Positions 5,295 through 26,325 of a stretch of 32,000 bases of DNA are shown one piece after another. Numbering within the stretch: position 1 is the first letter of the stretch; each line of letters starts with the position of its first letter. The translations under genes were made by a program, and so were the position numbers. Source of the DNA: an uncultured Alphaproteobacteria bacterium (GTDB lineage Bacteria; Pseudomonadota; Alphaproteobacteria; Rs-D84). The notes under the pieces are model-generated. The model searched no databases. It was given only the letters and a program-made list of their open reading frames with translations, and was not told the DNA's origin. Location: assembly GCA_963931495.1 (NCBI GenBank), contig OZ007020.1, positions 570,001-602,000 on the forward strand, read 5' to 3'.

Positions 5295-5322
5295 TGTTTC
5301 AGGTGCCCCTCCGGAATCCGAT

Positions 5323-5436
5323 GCCGAATCTAAACGGTGGTTTATTTTCAGCAAATTTTATATTGACTTTTTCTTGGTTTTCTTGATAAAATTCACACGG
5401 TTTGTAACCGAAAATAAACCACCGTTTAGATTTGGC
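5323..5436. repeat. Inverted repeat pair (27-bp arms, 1 mismatch, 60-bp spacer) carrying two copies of the palindromic box TAAACGGTGGTTTA
   Basis: 5323-5349 gccgaatctaaacggtggtttattttc is the reverse complement of 5410-5436 gaaaataaaccaccgtttagatttggc, except at 5326/5433. Box cores are at 5331-5344 and 5415-5428. Confidence 0.9.
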
Positions 5437-5510
5437 ATTTTGGTTGGTCGTAATTTCTTGTTTTAACTGCTTTTTTGTCTTTTTTACTTACGCCGGGATA
5501 TTTATCTTTC

Positions 5511-17783: not shown

Positions 17784-18104
17784 TTATCTTAATCCCTTGG
17801 CGCGACAACACGCGGATGCCGCACTGCGCCAATCAGAATATTGTTTATGCGGATTGCGCAAATCTTGCCACGGTTGCCAACCATTGCATGACATGTTTTC
17901 GCCACGCTGGGTACATTTCACATAACGACGCAATGTGCAGGTTTGATTTGATACCTTGCCCGTGTCAGTGGTGCACTTTACAACAACAGTTTGATTTTTT
18001 GCATCGTTTTTGCCCATTTCTTTGGATGACAATAACTGGTATGCATCAGCCGAGCATACAGATACAAAAATCATACACAATGCGATAAAGTATTTTTTTA
18101 CCAT
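17784..18104 (-). CDS. Small (106 aa) Cys-rich secreted protein, uncharacterised
   Basis: Signal peptide MVKKYFIALCMIFVSVCSADA. The mature part has 8 Cys. It is the last gene of a co-directional cluster. Confidence 0.5.
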   Translation of the reverse strand: MVKKYFIALCMIFVSVCSADAYQLLSSKEMGKNDAKNQTVVVKCTTDTGKVSNQTCTLRRYVKCTQRGENMSCNGWQPWQDLRNPHKQYSDWRSAASACCRAKGLR

Positions 18105-18163
18105 GGCGCGCTTCCTTTGTATTCAGATTATACAATATGTAAATAAAAAAATACAATTGGTTT

Positions 18164-19876
18164 TTATTCGGGATGGGTTTCGTGTGTTGTCCATGGTTCG
18201 TCATTCATAACCAGGTAATACAATTCGGCAAATTCTGTACCAGGGTTACGTATCACGGGGCGGACAACAAAAATATCAACATTGCATGCATGATTGCCCT
18301 GCTCTGATTGTATTGCCATTAAATTAAAATGAAACTTATCTGCGAAATCCATTGCTTGCAGATACGCGGCATCGTCGTCAGACGGACTGACCGAATCACC
18401 GGCCCACATCAACCACATTCCATGGTTTACAACATTTTCTTGGCCCTGTAAATCATCGGCCGACAGCAATGTCAGTGGTTTGAATTCAATGTCGTTTGTG
18501 AATTCACCAGTGCTGGTTTCGGTCCAATCATACATACCCCCAACAAATCGCAGGGCGCCGTATATAAATCCGCCAGTCCTTTCCATACGGGCCAATGCGC
18601 CAATATTAGACATTGTTGATTGAAATAACCAATCACGAATACGCCCAGAAAATGAACTGCTGCGTGCAATTTTTGTTGCGTTACGAATTTGGCGCCCACC
18701 AGTGTTGGCCGCCCGAACCGCACGCCATGCACGTGCGACAATGTTTCCGCGTTGTGCCGTGCGTAATCCGCGCAATGCCCGCCGGTATTGATTTAATGAT
18801 GCGAATGTGTCTGATGCCTGGCGATAGCGACGCACGTCATCAGTATTTTCCAATGTGCGCATTGTTTGTGCGTAATTTTCAACTTCGGATAATTTGCGCG
18901 CGTACCCCGTTGCGTCGGCCACACGGTCAATTTGATTCAATTCGGACATTGCGCGCGCGTATTGTTGCGATGTGCGAATATAATTTGTTACAGATTCTGT
19001 TTGGCGCAATGTGCGCATTGTTTGGCTCAGTCCGTTTAACGTGCGGGATGCGCGTGCGGCCTTGGTCGTTCCCAGAATCGCAGTCCCAGTTCCCATTGTT
19101 GCAACGGTTATCGCAACGTCCAGTCCAATTTCCATATATGATATCCACCGTAAATCAGCGTCGCCGGCAACGTAATAATCATTTGTGTCATCTGGGATAT
19201 TCACGGTTTCGTGCATCGCCAGATTTATCATTTCGCGATTACCGGCAATTGCAGATTTGCTGGTGCATCGGTTACCATGCGGAAATATTTTATCAATGTT
19301 GTCATTTATGTACTGCATTGATATGGTGTTGTTTTTGCCGGGACCGATAAAGTCATCCAGACTGCCTGATTCAACAACCATTATTGCATACCATGCAGGG
19401 TCGGTATTCGTCCAAATGGAATCGTCGCCAGGCCCGCCAATAACTGGATTTGGATTATTGTCAGATGCCAGTGTGCGTCGTTCGGCCAATTTTATACGCT
19501 GGTTCAATATCTTTGGTTGTGTTTCATAGTTTATTTTGATATTGCGGCCAGTTGGAAATGTGTATTGTATCGTTTGTAATTTTATTGTTTCGTCATCAGA
19601 TGCATTGGCAAATTCAGGGCATGCAATTACGTGGCGCAGTACATCAGCATTTTGAAATGTTTGATATATCCATTGTTGGATTTTTGTTTCATCGTCTGAT
19701 GCGTCAACGGTGTTTGCTGTTTTAGCCAGTGCATTTGCAAATACAGTGGTGGAACACGATGTGTCTGGTTGTGCTGTGTCGCGGTGTATGTCGGGTATTG
19801 GTGTATTATCTGCGCAAAGCGCCACATTTGTGGCGCCAACAAAAATAACAAAAAATGTCAAAATTTTTTGCAGCAT
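18164..19876 (-). CDS. 570-aa exported protein, uncharacterised
   Basis: Signal peptide MLQKILTFFVIFVGATNVALCA. Central hydrophobic stretch IGLDVAITVATMGTGTAILG, then an Arg-rich helical region with an internal QTMRTL duplication. The start lies 3 nt after the upstream gene stop. Confidence 0.7.
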   Translation of the reverse strand: MLQKILTFFVIFVGATNVALCADNTPIPDIHRDTAQPDTSCSTTVFANALAKTANTVDASDDETKIQQWIYQTFQNADVLRHVIACPEFANASDDETIKLQTIQYTFPTGRNIKINYETQPKILNQRIKLAERRTLASDNNPNPVIGGPGDDSIWTNTDPAWYAIMVVESGSLDDFIGPGKNNTISMQYINDNIDKIFPHGNRCTSKSAIAGNREMINLAMHETVNIPDDTNDYYVAGDADLRWISYMEIGLDVAITVATMGTGTAILGTTKAARASRTLNGLSQTMRTLRQTESVTNYIRTSQQYARAMSELNQIDRVADATGYARKLSEVENYAQTMRTLENTDDVRRYRQASDTFASLNQYRRALRGLRTAQRGNIVARAWRAVRAANTGGRQIRNATKIARSSSFSGRIRDWLFQSTMSNIGALARMERTGGFIYGALRFVGGMYDWTETSTGEFTNDIEFKPLTLLSADDLQGQENVVNHGMWLMWAGDSVSPSDDDAAYLQAMDFADKFHFNLMAIQSEQGNHACNVDIFVVRPVIRNPGTEFAELYYLVMNDEPWTTHETHPE

Positions 19877-19879
19877 TAA

Positions 19880-21067
19880 TTACAGTCCTGATACACTGCC
19901 GATTGATTGACCACATGTATCAATGATGCGTTGGCGTTCGCTTGATATACGCCGTATCAATTCATCATATGGATCTTGTGTCGGATTATTCGGCTTTGTA
20001 TATGGTGGAACCGGTACCGTTGTGCCCGATTGAACACATGTATTACCAGAACGTGTATAGCCATCAATACATGTCCATGTATAGCAAATATTTGTGGTGT
20101 CTGGAATATATTTTATATATGATTCAATTCCCACCGCAGGTTCTGTTTCGCCGGCACAGAAACGGGTTGTGCATTCGGGGGTCCAAAAATCGTTGCGGAA
20201 CATGCTTTGCGGCCAAGATGCTTCGGTATCAGACCATGTGGTGTTATCTTTCATTTTCCCTTGCAAGCATTGGCGGACCATTGGTTCAACAGGTGTCGGT
20301 GCAGCGGCATCGGCGGGTGCGCCACAAAACATATAATCACCAATGTTGGCCAGCCGTTCGCCCTTGTTGAATACGGTGTTGCAACATGTAAATTGTCTGG
20401 TTATCGGGTCGTATAGACAATCTGTTTCTGAAAATAATTGGGATCCAGCAACCAGTCCACCAACCAGTGCGCCGGCACCAACGGCGGCCCCATATCCAAT
20501 TTGACCAAGCACAGGTATTGCATTGACCACAGCGGCCCCACCCGCAGCGGCGGTGGCGCCACTGACCACGCCCTGGACAACGTCGCCCCACGAATGTTCA
20601 TCGTTACCAGATGCGGCATTTATTACACCGGCGGTTCCCGCCACTGCGCCAACCGCACCCAGTGCCCCGGTTGCAAGATTGCGTGCATTTATGCGGGGGC
20701 CGCCCTGGTTTTGTGGGGATGTGTTCCCCATGGGTGGAACAACGGGTGGAACATTGCCGGCGGATGTGGCCCCGGCGGCAACATTTGTGTTACCTGTGAC
20801 AGATGCGCCCGATGTTCGTTGTTGGGCCGGGATTGATTCATCAATGGATACAATTTTTGACCCGGCGGTGGTCGGTGCGTTAAGGCGCATCCCAGTGTCG
20901 CGATTACGATAATTTAATGTTTGGCCATCGTCACCAACGGTTAATGTTGCCTGGCGGGTTGTTTGCTGCCATGCATCTGGATTAGAAATATTTGATATAT
21001 CCAGTGCAAACGCCGATGATGTTGCGAATAATGCCACGACAGTGAAAGAAGCAATTTGATGTTTCAT
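19880..21067 (-). CDS. 395-aa exported protein with glycine-zipper region and Cys-rich C-terminal domain, uncharacterised
   Basis: Signal peptide MKHQIASFTVVALFATSSAFA. A Gly/Ala-rich zipper follows (GALGAVGAVAGTAGV...GAAVGAGALVGGLVAG). The C-terminal domain has 12 Cys, including TCIDGYTRSGNTC. Confidence 0.7.
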   Translation of the reverse strand: MKHQIASFTVVALFATSSAFALDISNISNPDAWQQTTRQATLTVGDDGQTLNYRNRDTGMRLNAPTTAGSKIVSIDESIPAQQRTSGASVTGNTNVAAGATSAGNVPPVVPPMGNTSPQNQGGPRINARNLATGALGAVGAVAGTAGVINAASGNDEHSWGDVVQGVVSGATAAAGGAAVVNAIPVLGQIGYGAAVGAGALVGGLVAGSQLFSETDCLYDPITRQFTCCNTVFNKGERLANIGDYMFCGAPADAAAPTPVEPMVRQCLQGKMKDNTTWSDTEASWPQSMFRNDFWTPECTTRFCAGETEPAVGIESYIKYIPDTTNICYTWTCIDGYTRSGNTCVQSGTTVPVPPYTKPNNPTQDPYDELIRRISSERQRIIDTCGQSIGSVSGL

Positions 21068-21070
21068 ATT

Positions 21071-21976
21071 TTAATACTTTCCATTTAATTGGGCCAGACA
21101 ATCTGAAATTGGAATCCCAGAATCACGACATTTTTGCGCCGTTGCCAAATCTGCATCAATTATAGACAGGCGGGCGATTTCCTTGGTACAGAATGCGTTT
21201 ACGCGGTTATTGTAATCTTCTTCGCTTTCAATGGTTATTGTGCGATATGCGGATGCGTCTTTGTACGGGGCGTATCCTGCCGCGTCATTTTGCATGCGTT
21301 CGGTAAATGATAAATCCGCCGCCGTTGTGGGAAATGCCGTTGCCACCAACACAGAATCACCGGTGCTGTTCGCAGATTGTAAATTTTTTAATTCTTGTTC
21401 GCGTTGTAATTTTTCCAGTGCCCATGGTTCGCCGTTCCATACCGGTAACTGTTGCTGGTACGGGTTTTGAAACTGAACCCCCTGTTGCGTTGCCGCGGTA
21501 TTCGGACCGGTTGCCGTTGGGAATGCAACCGTCGTTCCAGTTGGTGCCGCAATCGCATTTTCAGATACGTATTTTTCAAATTCAGTATCAATATATCCGC
21601 CACATGGTGTTACATAGTTATGATTTGGTAAACTGGCCAATTGGACGGTCAGTGTCGGGCGGGCGTCATCCACGTCCACACCAACACAATTATTGCGCGA
21701 CGCACAGTATGATGCCACCAGTGCACCGACAATCGCCTGGCAATCAGCGGTTGATACGTCAGTACCCTGGGCATATACGGGAACTGGCATGCGTTGGTTA
21801 TACGGACTGTCCGGGTTCCAGAATGGATTTGATGAATAATTCTGTACGTTCTGTATCTGGCCATACTGGGAAAATGGCGACGGTGTCGTTGTTGTATTAA
21901 TCGTTGTCGCAGTGGCCGAATTCATTATCCCGACAATAAATGCGCACACAGATGCAGATAAAATACGTATTTTCAT
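21071..21976 (-). CDS. 301-aa exported protein, uncharacterised
   Basis: Signal peptide MKIRILSASVCAFIVGIMNSATA. The mature part has 8 Cys. The gene ends 3 nt before the next gene start. Confidence 0.65.
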   Translation of the reverse strand: MKIRILSASVCAFIVGIMNSATATTINTTTTPSPFSQYGQIQNVQNYSSNPFWNPDSPYNQRMPVPVYAQGTDVSTADCQAIVGALVASYCASRNNCVGVDVDDARPTLTVQLASLPNHNYVTPCGGYIDTEFEKYVSENAIAAPTGTTVAFPTATGPNTAATQQGVQFQNPYQQQLPVWNGEPWALEKLQREQELKNLQSANSTGDSVLVATAFPTTAADLSFTERMQNDAAGYAPYKDASAYRTITIESEEDYNNRVNAFCTKEIARLSIIDADLATAQKCRDSGIPISDCLAQLNGKY

Positions 21977-22550: not shown

Positions 22551-23078
22551 ATGAGTAAAGGCTGGGACAGCGCAACACTGAAAAAATTAAAAGCATTAAC
22601 AGGCAAAGGGTTGTCAACATCTGAAATTGGCAGACGTTTGGGAATGTCTAAGAATGCGGTTGTTGGTAAATTGAACAGATTGGGATGGAATTCCAAGGCG
22701 GGCGGTGTCAGTGCCACAACCAAGGCGCCGGTGTCCAAAAAGGCGGACAAGGTTACATCAAAAAAAGGTGCCAGTACAAAGAAAACATCGGTCGCCAAAC
22801 AATCAACTAAATCTGGGGGCGCGGGCAAAAAAGCGTCTGGGGTGGCGTCGTCACGCGGGACGCGTTCTGTGAATAATAATCTGGCAATGCACCAGCGTAT
22901 CATCCAGCATTCATTAGAAATGGCGAACTTAAAGCCAAATCAATGTCGTTGGCCAATCGGTGATCCGGATTCCGAAGGGTTCCATTTTTGTGGTGCGCCT
23001 GTATTTGTTGGCAAGCCGTATTGTTACGAACATTGCAAACAGGCATATCAATTTACACCGCCAAAGAAAAAGCAATAA
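22551..23078 (+). CDS. gcrA: GcrA cell-cycle regulator
   Basis: WDSATLKKLKALTGKGLSTSEIGRRLGMSKNAVVGKLNRLGW is the GcrA N-terminal DNA-binding domain. A basic linker follows, then C-terminal CRWPIGDP...FHFCG...PYCYEHC, the conserved GcrA C-terminal motif. Confidence 0.9.
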   Translation: MSKGWDSATLKKLKALTGKGLSTSEIGRRLGMSKNAVVGKLNRLGWNSKAGGVSATTKAPVSKKADKVTSKKGASTKKTSVAKQSTKSGGAGKKASGVASSRGTRSVNNNLAMHQRIIQHSLEMANLKPNQCRWPIGDPDSEGFHFCGAPVFVGKPYCYEHCKQAYQFTPPKKKQ

Positions 23079-25310: not shown

Positions 25311-25339
25311 AAAATCTGCGCGAATGCGCAGATTTTTTA
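25311..25339 (+). terminator. Rho-independent terminator after the 743-aa gene
   Basis: 11-bp stem aaaatctgcgc / gcgcagatttt (25311-25321 / 25326-25336) with a 4-nt loop and a T-run. Confidence 0.75.
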
Positions 25340-25369: not shown

Positions 25370-25399
25370 TTGATTTGTTTTTGGCAGATTTGGTATAAT
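25370..25399 (+). promoter_or_regulatory. Strong sigma70-like promoter with extended -10 upstream of Cys-rich gene P2
   Basis: TTGATT (25370-25375), an 18-nt spacer, then TGgTATAAT (TG 25391-25392, TATAAT 25394-25399). The predicted start near 25406 places both boxes in the leader. Confidence 0.55.
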
Positions 25400-25426
25400 T
25401 CACCGCGTGAAAGTGATGATATTTAT

Positions 25427-25537
25427 GCCTAATCTAAACCACCGTTTATAATGGCGATTTTTATTTTTGTAAAAATCCCAGAATTCTGCATTTTTTGTCC
25501 CCCACTTTTTGCCGAATCTAAACGGTGGTTTAGATTC
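25427..25537. repeat. Second inverted pair of the TAAACGGTGGTTTA box (18-bp arms; right copy is a perfect 24-bp palindrome)
   Basis: 25431-25448 aatctaaaccaccgttta is the reverse complement of 25519-25536 taaacggtggtttagatt. 25514-25537 gaatctaaacGGTGgtttagattc is self-complementary. 25511-25532 is identical to 5323-5344. Confidence 0.9.
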
Positions 25538-26325
25538 AATTATATTATGTGTGATGGCGATGTTGCCGTTTTCCGGATATGCGGCGGTATCTTACCCCGG
25601 GGACGAGGCGGGATCTTGGTGCAGTTCGGGTTTTACATGGTGTACCGATATGGCGGGAACATTTGGATGTTGTGCCCCCCAGACAGCGTCATGCGGGAAC
25701 GGTGCGTATTGTAAGACCGGTGGTGGCGGTGGTGGTGCCGGTACCGGCGGCAGTGCCACGTGTACACAAAAATTTTCATGCACCGGTTCGGCATCAGAGA
25801 TAAATTCTGTCAGTAATTGCGCGGTTTCGTTAACCAGTTGTTATGGTGATGCTGCAAGCAATCCAGTTGTGACGTGTACCAGATGTTTAACCGGGTATGA
25901 CATGACCGCAATGTATATCAGTCTGGATGGTGATTGTCGGAATGTATCCATACAGTATTTATTATACGTGTACCAAGGATGACGGTGGTGGTGGTGATGG
26001 CGGTGGTGATGGTGGTGGCGGTGACATCGGAACAATTTGTCAGAATTGTACCAATTCGGCGGGGGTGTGTACAATGACATCGCCAAAGTGTTGCCCACCA
26101 TGTGATGAAAGTGCCGTGGGTCCAGTGGAATGTCCGGCGGGACAGTATGGGTTTTCTGCATCAAACTGTCAACCATGTCCGGTGGGGCCAAACGGCGAAT
26201 CAACCACCAGTATAAAGGGGCAGAACAGAAGTATCACCGGATGCTATATTGCGGCGGGCACGGAATTTTCAGATGACACAGGCAGTGGTGTATATGTGGA
26301 AAAGTGTAGTTATTCTTTGATATAA
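25509..26325 (+). pseudogene. Cys-rich secreted protein P2, split by a +1 frameshift (two overlapping ORFs 25509-25982 and 25927-26325)
   Basis: The upstream ORF has a hydrophobic N-terminus and many Cys, and stops at 25980-25982. The second frame is open from 25906 and continues the same Cys/Gly-rich composition to a C-terminus homologous to P1. The start is uncertain (TTG 25509, GTG 25551 or ATG 25554). Confidence 0.55.

Follow-up and report, generated by a model that had tools for sequence, protein, structure and literature searches.

Two box pairs and the genes that they precede

A stretch of 32,000 nucleotides from an uncultured alphaproteobacterium (order Rs-D84; GenBank assembly GCA_963931495.1, contig OZ007020.1, positions 570,001 to 602,000 of the forward strand) was analysed; it is called the window below, and coordinates given without another label refer to it. 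The window contains two pairs of short inverted sequence boxes, locus 1 and locus 2, each at the 5' end of a gene for a secreted protein, and the function of the pair at locus 2 is the subject of this report. Locus 1 precedes P1 (4629-5294, minus strand), which it is predicted to control, and locus 2 precedes P2 (25554 onward, plus strand). Both proteins are cysteine-rich, carry signal peptides and have a C-terminal motif in common, and neither matched a Pfam family. The 5' part of P2 (25554-25982, plus strand) encodes the hydrophobic part of the signal peptide and a cysteine-rich domain and is ended early by a 4-bp duplication near 25955-25962; the 3' part (25927-26325, plus strand) encodes a C-terminus paralogous to that of P1 (E = 2e-5 over 28 amino acids). 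At the frameshift (25950-25966) the window reads CAGTATTTATTATACG as opposed to CAGTATTATACG in contig L045 (L numbers denote the sequences compared), and in other strains P2 is a single open reading frame (ORF) of 248-257 amino acids.

The boxes of locus 2 have the cores TAAACCACCGTTTA (25435-25448) and TAAACGGTGGTTTA (25519-25532), the starts of which are 84 bp apart, equal to the spacing of the locus 1 cores at 5331 and 5415. The original prediction of a second box pair with this spacing was confirmed: allowing two mismatches, the core matched four times in the window versus 0.41 expected, and none of 100 shuffled sequences gave four matches. A weight matrix built from the sites of other genomes only scored the four window sites at 35-51 bits and the rest of the window at no more than 12 bits. 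The gene-proximal copies at 25511-25532 and 5323-5344 are identical at 22 of 22 positions, and the distal arms (GCCTAATC and GCCAAATC) differ from the proximal copies (GCCGAATC) at the G of GANTC, both as had been claimed. The perfect 24-bp palindrome that had been described at 25514-25537, GAATCTAAAC-GGTG-GTTTAGATTC, was found to be perfect in its 10-bp arms only; the 4-bp centre is not palindromic, and the asymmetry of GGTG is the key feature of the site. The boxes are central parts of longer, 34-bp sites, ATGCCGAATC-TAAAC-GGTG-GTTTA-GATTCGGCAT, in which palindromic arms enclose an asymmetric centre. At locus 2 the distal site spans 25425-25458 (minus strand, 34.8 bits), with a good outer arm (ATGCCTAATC) and a degenerate inner arm, and the gene-proximal site spans 25509-25542 (plus strand, 39.5 bits) and is translated as PNLNGGLDS in the reading frame of P2. 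The corresponding sites of locus 1 are gene-proximal at 5321-5354 (core 5331-5344, plus strand, 50.7 bits) and distal at 5405-5438 (core 5415-5428, minus strand, 42.0 bits).

A sigma-70-type promoter, TTGATT-18-TGgTATAAT (25370-25399, plus strand), with 10 of 12 consensus matches and a TG extension, is located outside the locus 2 pair, reads into it and is kept in four other strains. This agrees with the earlier proposal that both boxes of locus 2 are in a transcribed region. The minus-strand promoter TTTACA-17-TATAAA proposed for the locus 2 interior is present as sequence, but its -10 hexamer fails the promoter-scan rule and it is not conserved among related elements; the conserved feature on that strand is a ribosome-binding site followed by ATG. 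The interiors of locus 1 and locus 2, each the 70 bp between cores (5345-5414, termed type A, and 25449-25518, termed type B), were no more similar to each other than to shuffled sequence with both orientations tried, as the original prediction held for the pair.

Inversion of DNA at locus 1

The intergenic region between P1 and leuS was aligned for seven contigs of the same species. Bases outside the boxes were 100% identical within each haplotype, whereas the 60-70 bp between the boxes in L001, L003 and L072 were the exact reverse complement of those in the window, L002, L071 and L073. The interior contains a promoter, TTGACT-18-TGATAAAAT (5363-5392, plus strand), that is directed away from P1 in the window (OFF) and toward P1 in the flipped contigs (ON); an effect on P1 expression is suggested by the position of the promoter. 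Two haplotypes were distinguished by single-nucleotide polymorphisms (SNPs) in the outer arm, in the Shine-Dalgarno sequence of P1 and in the interior, and both orientations occur in each haplotype. The interior SNP moves with the flipped segment while the outer-arm SNPs remain in place. Since both orientations are found in two haplotypes and the SNPs behave in this manner, the results indicate that locus 1 undergoes recurrent site-specific inversion with the crossover inside the conserved core, and that the two orientations are neither an assembly accident nor the outcome of a single historical event.

The inversion of locus 1 DNA between natural samples speaks against the mechanisms considered previously, a long-range RNA stem or a DNA-binding regulator, while the more general expectation of a dedicated control device shared by paralogous secreted-protein genes was borne out. 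Control at the level of RNA, in which the boxes would pair in the leader over 18 bp and the resulting long-range stem would regulate P2 through translation or termination, is very improbable. The leader does fold with the stem (-43.7 kcal/mol, z = -5.6) and the upstream promoter would transcribe both boxes; however, folding is automatic for inverted repeats, the arms are conserved as sequence and not via compensatory changes, and no Rfam family was matched at gathering score. Moreover, the boxes of locus 1 flank a promoter and are not in a leader. A secondary influence of the stem on expression is possible.

Distribution and consensus of the recombination sites

The 18-mer AATCTAAACGGTGGTTTA occurred 26 times in 185,579 species genomes, with 20 of the occurrences in metagenome-assembled genomes (MAGs) of gut Alphaproteobacteria from human, deer, goat and chicken. 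The other six were lone, and about 17 chance matches would be expected by our own estimate. The MAGs bearing the box are labelled uncultured Alphaproteobacteria and Candidatus Enterousia and belong to the order Rs-D84. The consensus of 38 sites was TTATGCCGAATC-TAAAC-GGTG-GTTTA-(G/T)(A/T)TTCGGCAT-AA, in which the centre hardly varies at CGGT and does not vary at all at the central GT (38 of 38). By its sequence the 34-bp consensus has the architecture of a recombinase core site, readable either as 13-8-13, as in lox and FRT, or as 16-2-16, as in the crossover sites of serine recombinases. Partner cores were inverted in all 19 pairs examined. The spacing was 84 bp in nine pairs, 85 bp in eight and 97 bp in two, the last being orthologous loci, consistent with the expectation that spacing is held constant in relatives (84-85 bp in 17 of 19).

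Several partner sites, at no fewer than eight loci, deviate at core positions 9-14 (GGTC, or AAAACGGTCCTTTG) and yet retain the 84- or 85-bp spacing. Because these partner differences fit a 2-bp overlap at GT better than one of 6-8 bp, the data lean weakly toward a serine recombinase that would cut at the invariant central GT. The variant partner core GAAAACGGTCCTTTG was present in three MAGs (L024 4951; L026 504; L038 1451), each time 84-85 bp from a standard core, and AAACGGT was the only part common to all sites. In one MAG, 269 bp of upstream flank are common to L021 (4014-4281) and L028 (5893-6156) with 88% identity, and the asymmetric core beside it is oppositely oriented in the two, an arrangement that could reflect an earlier exchange in which sites from separate loci took part.

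The palindromic arms of each box, the 84-85 bp spacing and the promoter-like sequences within pairs could also be read as operator sites, at which a dimeric repressor would draw 84 bp, or eight helical turns, into a loop around a promoter. Such looping is very improbable. It leaves unexplained the invariant and always inverted asymmetric centre, the physical inversions (that of locus 1 refutes it there) and the in-frame coding through the box described below; in addition, a spacing of 97 bp does not keep the helical phase of the 84-bp pairs.

Regulation of the promoters by GANTC methylation through CcrM and GcrA was also evaluated and rejected, as the site family varies at the G of GANTC (G 26, T 7, C 3 and A 2 in 38 arms) and the frequency of GANTC in the window equals the dinucleotide expectation (72 versus 71.5 ± 8). 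GANTC sites do cluster at the gene-proximal boxes (5314-5330 and 25514-25537), and GcrA is encoded at 22551-23078.

Inverted TAAAC-N4-GTTTA pairs with other arms and centres were found on metagenome contigs L067 (1018-1115), L063 (201-310) and L060 (2267-2378) with spacings of 84, 96 and 98 bp; the arms of the first (TGTCGGATTTAAAC) resemble those of the family described here, and the three pairs are possibly sister systems in other lineages. A scan of metagenomes with the paired pattern and a degenerate centre returned mostly unrelated palindromic repeats and was set aside, the pattern being too loose and the JGI collection seemingly devoid of this clade. Matches on viral contigs were direct repeats inside a repetitive gene, unrelated to the sites. 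In the searchable literature no relevant paper was found to carry the core sequence.

The locus 2 cassette and its predicted in-frame fusion with P2

Counterparts of the element at 25421-25537, with 74-86% identity to it, were present at 11 loci of other MAGs, where the flanks are unrelated. The view that interiors drift freely between fixed boxes therefore does not extend to locus 2, the interior of which is preserved among relatives. Oriented alike, these elements have a start codon and the Shine-Dalgarno sequence before it in common, in the form GATTCGGCA-N-GGGGA-N5-7-ATGCAGAAATCTGGGATTTTTA-AAAATAAAAA. In the window the corresponding GGGGGA-N6-ATG is located on the strand opposite to P2. 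The Shine-Dalgarno-like GGGGGA (25498-25503, minus strand), represented by GGGGA, AGGAG or AAGGA in related cassettes, faces away from P2, and the ATG (25491-25489) opens a dead-end ORF of 20 codons, MQNSGIFTKIKIAIINGGLD (25429-25491, minus strand), with a stop provided by the TAG of the outer arm.

Flipping locus 2 in silico places the ATG at position 25476 on the plus strand in frame with P2. The resulting ORF continues from the cassette ATG to AAC GGT GGT TTA GAT TCA through the proximal box and into P2 (MQNSGIFTKIKIAIINGGLDSIILCVMAMLPFSGYAAVS...), fusing MQNSGIFTKIK…LNGGL to the hydrophobic part of the P2 signal peptide. A like fusion, with Shine-Dalgarno sequence, ATG and MQxSGIFSKIK..LNGGL, was obtained on in-silico flip of L019, L021, L036, L037 and L044. 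At all these loci the fused ORF is long; its product begins with a lysine-rich segment, which is followed by LNGGL from the box, a hydrophobic stretch and an AxA-like cleavage motif. Two loci, L032 and L039, are ON as assembled; a protein search with the product of the former gave no match, and the product of the latter (193 amino acids) ends with the motif of the P1/P2 family; type-B loci related to locus 2 are accordingly found in both states relative to their genes. Most type-B loci have a fixed promoter next to the distal site on its outer side, and near-consensus promoters are present in this position at locus 2, L019, L036, L044, L023, L040, L043 and L039. A third class, that with 97-bp spacing (L020 and L041), has promoter, Shine-Dalgarno sequence and ATG together in the element. 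Across strains, the Shine-Dalgarno sequence, ATG and reading frame of the locus 2 cassette are kept, the interior SNPs found being one tolerated codon change and GGGGGA to GGGGAA. The predicted ON junctions of locus 2 are CCACCGTTTA|GATTCGGCAAAAAGTGG and CGCCATTA|TAAACGGTGGTTTAGATTCAATT, or in longer form ...TAAACCACCGTTTA|GATTCGGCAAAAAGTGGGGG and ...AATCGCCATTA|TAAACGGTGGTTTAGATTCAATT.

A palindrome, CAGAATTCTG (25479-25488), occupies the exact midpoint of the locus 2 element with A5 and T6 tracts at its sides, and the midpoint motif (CAGAAATCTG or CGGAAATCTG) is retained even by related cassettes that have no ATG. A role at the DNA level, for example as a bend or an accessory-protein site, is possible.

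The recurrence of the whole unit of about 118 bp, interior included, at many loci with unrelated flanks is what would be expected of a miniature inverted-repeat transposable element (MITE) with terminal inverted repeats scattered in the genome and only incidental regulation. This explanation was judged the least probable of those considered. The unit is always at the 5' end of a gene and type B is in frame with that gene, several unrelated interiors have the same ends, no target-site duplication is visible in the flanks, and the element inverts in place; spread of cassettes could, furthermore, be the recombinase's own doing.

Two further groups of loci were noted. In L036 (1109-1542) and L044 (1984-2069) a type-B switch in the OFF state precedes a small ORF with a weak match to TrbC/VirB2 pilin (E = 0.008), which suggests a phase-variable type IV secretion pilin. 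In L043 (1440-1640) and L023 (6229-6420) the pairs are situated between a consensus promoter and a gene with its own Shine-Dalgarno sequence and ATG, and the product of the L043 gene is apparently not secreted.

A miniature inversion switch as the proposed function

It is proposed, with a probability of roughly 0.8, that 25425-25542 is a miniature site-specific DNA inversion switch (inverton) and a member of a family in gut Alphaproteobacteria with small genomes (order Rs-D84, Candidatus Enterousia and relatives), all of it acted on by a single unlinked recombinase. The family seems to turn secreted cysteine-rich proteins on and off, and at locus 2 the flipped piece seems to carry a ribosome-binding site and start codon and not a promoter. 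The arms ATGCCGAATCTAAAC are palindromic around the asymmetric GGTG, and strand exchange within the core would flip the 70 bp between cores. At locus 1 the flipped piece carries the promoter. At locus 2 the promoter (25370-25399) is fixed outside, and the flipped piece would bring the ATG with its ribosome-binding site and, of the first 16 codons, 15, with the core supplying part of codon 15 and codons 16 onward. In the ON state translation would start in the cassette (MQNSGIFTKIKIAII), pass through the proximal site (NGGLDS) and enter the hydrophobic core of the P2 signal peptide. In the OFF state, that of the window, the cassette would be backwards and yield only the 20-codon dead-end ORF, leaving P2 with neither a ribosome-binding site nor the charged start of its signal peptide. 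The locus 2 switch would thus be in a transcribed leader, and the thing switched would be the DNA orientation of the translation start. The shared sites and conserved geometry suggest that locus 2 itself still flips, and the placement of the Shine-Dalgarno sequence and ATG suggests that orientation at locus 2 controls translation.

A broader proposal is more tentative, with somewhat less than even odds. According to this proposal the pairs, in which the crossover points are 84-85 bp apart and the 34-bp sites are separated by about 50 bp, would be the smallest natural invertible switches described, and the near-fixed spacing would serve as a selectivity filter. An unlinked recombinase would then act only on partners one tight loop apart, and the scattered sites of the 0.96-Mb chromosome would never recombine together. 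The type-B interior would be an interchangeable start cassette, consisting of Shine-Dalgarno sequence, ATG and the charged N-terminus of a signal peptide, with the site translated as LNGGL, and the outcome would be phase variation of translation and secretion and not of transcription.

Several results weigh against a functional switch at locus 2. Contigs of this species were retrieved via GcrA, fragments of P2 and three variants of it; counting the window, the seven independent contigs that cover locus 2 (the window, L004/L068, L005 and L045-L048) are without exception OFF. Consensus assemblies give the majority orientation only, and therefore seven OFF contigs of seven are compatible with switching. 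Ten predicted ON-state P2 proteins had no exact match among approximately 15 billion proteins, and a search with the in-silico ON P2 protein returned only clusters with members beginning at OFF-state starts. The inner arm of the distal site is degenerate at locus 2, a condition also seen in the inner arms of locus 1, which is active. To these are added the frameshift of P2 in the window and an 84-bp loop that is at the edge of the known recombination range.

The most serious rival, considered unlikely, is that locus 2 is a relic of an inversion system frozen in the OFF state, with boxes that are recombination sites by descent and a P2 that is silent or decaying. The uniformly OFF contigs, the absence of an ON-state P2 protein on record, the degenerate inner arm and the frameshift are all in accord with a relic. 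Arguing in the other direction, both locus 2 cores are perfect and the outer arms good, and the Shine-Dalgarno sequence, ATG and frame of the cassette are preserved across strains; the restriction of consensus assemblies to the majority orientation applies here as well. At least ten variants of P2 from other strains are intact, and the gene is therefore under selection.

Short-read contigs from several samples end at recurring bases within locus 2: 25452, 25456, 25502 and 25541 (L006/L012, L008, L014-17 and L018). The stop at 25456 coincides with a three-allele SNP at 25457, and the other stops match neither SNPs nor a simple ON/OFF mixture, a further point that does not favour switching at locus 2. 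The contig breaks were not used as evidence of ON/OFF heterogeneity, as their positions are off those that a mixture predicts.

The search for a recombinase also yielded results unfavourable to the inversion switch. All ORFs of all loci were searched by phmmer with FimB, FimE, PinE, XerD and the recombinase of L027 as queries. No ORF resembling FimB or FimE, XerD or Pin was detected in the window, in the 10 kb on either side or around 20 other sites, and approximately 350 kb of sequence from relatives yielded no recombinase gene. When 90 flanking ORFs were scanned against Pfam (25 families listed), no recombinase was among the matches listed. In L027 (782-1491), from a GC-rich Pseudolabrys MAG, a gene for a serine recombinase (Resolvase domain, E = 4e-31) is preceded at a distance of 27 nt by an exact box, AATCTAAACGGTGGTTTAGAG; it is the one serine recombinase seen beside a box. 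Since the box is missing at three plasmid homologues of this enzyme, it was retained as a weak lead.

Comparison with known inversion systems

Bacteroides fragilis reportedly has invertible promoters under a global serine invertase, Mpi, said to have been described by Coyne et al. in 2003. The invertible segments of this organism are approximately 170-230 bp. The resemblance to the system described here includes a gut commensal host, many small invertons with a common inverted-repeat consensus and, by prediction in the present case, a recombinase that is mostly not adjacent and surface structures as the target; the differences are the size (84 bp here), the repeat sequence and the nature of the B. 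fragilis switches, which are promoters only with no start-codon cassette. The cwpV switch of C. difficile is 195 bp and forms a terminator in the OFF orientation. It is like locus 2 in that an invertible element is positioned between a fixed promoter and the coding sequence with control after transcription initiation (PMC2784873); it is unlike locus 2, where the size is 84 bp and the element appears to supply or remove the Shine-Dalgarno sequence, ATG and N-terminus. Multiple invertible capsule loci are documented in B. fragilis (PMC11868660).

Promoter inversions of the mpl genes (P35 family) in Mycoplasma penetrans were reported by Horino et al. 2003, as summarised in PMC10502178. So far as that summary extends, they too involve a host-associated bacterium with a reduced genome and one small switch per paralogous surface-protein gene, each independently ON or OFF. 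There the elements are promoters, whereas the translation start would be flipped at locus 2, and the lineage, sites and cargo proteins are other. In Ureaplasma mba/UU172 (PMC3047005) and M. pulmonis vsa (PMC10502178), as predicted for locus 2, the site is in or near the N-terminal coding region and inversion picks the body that follows the expressed 5' end. The segments exchanged there are large and involve two or more genes, unlike the self-contained 70-bp cassette that would flip in place here with a dead-end ORF on its other side. Locus 2 is best placed, by its predicted geometry, in the class of partial intergenic invertons, which is the longest inverton class (PMC10028968).

The palindromic arms and short asymmetric centre that sets directionality are features in common with Cre/loxP (13-8-13) and Hin/hix (12-2-12), although no sequence similarity to lox, FRT, dif or hix was found. 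Efficient recombination by Cre has a minimum of 82 bp (PMC11260471), and the 84-bp spacing described here is just above that value. The system described here differs from the known ones in its 84-85 bp size, in a spacing that is almost constant, in a recombination site that would be translated as part of a signal peptide and in the use of one site for interchangeable cassettes.

Members of the order Rs-D84 have genomes under about 1 Mb (PMC12306168). The Rs-D84/Enterousia group is widespread in human and animal guts, uncultured and almost unstudied. A genome-wide set of miniature switches on cysteine-rich secreted proteins, and possibly on a pilin, would mean that these organisms vary their surface, as expected for life in intimate contact with a host or with other cells. 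A short switch with near-invariant spacing would be a natural test case for the tightness of DNA looping in a recombination synapse, and flipping of a translation start together with the N-terminus of a signal peptide would be an unusual ON/OFF gene design. Such elements cause breaks in assemblies of short reads and lead gene callers astray. The 34-bp site could provide a compact new recombination tool if its enzyme were found.

Gene neighbourhood and strain variation of P2

The window encodes GcrA. Gut metagenomes of humans and animals contain sequences of the window repeatedly, one of them a circular contig of 958,617 bp. Upstream of the P2 promoter is a hairpin, ATCTGCGC-GAAT-GCGCAGAT (25315-25339, no strand assigned), with A or T runs on both sides. 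The hairpin was read in the sequence; it gave terminator-like Rfam matches below threshold, was unlisted by a simple terminator scan, and probably acts as a terminator in both directions, separating the P2 unit from the gene upstream, which encodes 743 amino acids. The start of P2 is called in three ways (MAMLPFSG, MLPFSG and MPNLNGG), and in one long contig P2 is uncalled. A GGT/GAT (Gly/Asp) tract of P2 (25981-26030) varies in length and pattern by strain (GGGGDGGGDGGGGD, GGDGGGDGGDGGGGD, GGDEGGGGGDGGGGD and others).

Four cysteine-rich secreted ORFs (106, 570, 395 and 301 amino acids) at 17784-21976 adjoin a prepilin peptidase (A24), and none has a preceding box. No Pfam family was found for these ORFs in a Pfam scan of the 570-residue ORF or in precomputed Pfam calls on contig L004 for all four. 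The region beside P2 (26956-27192) is strain-variable: an ORF of 78 amino acids downstream of the ACPS gene is replaced in L045/L047/L048 (2896-3768) by a gene encoding 656 amino acids with a faint TNFR-like cysteine-rich match.

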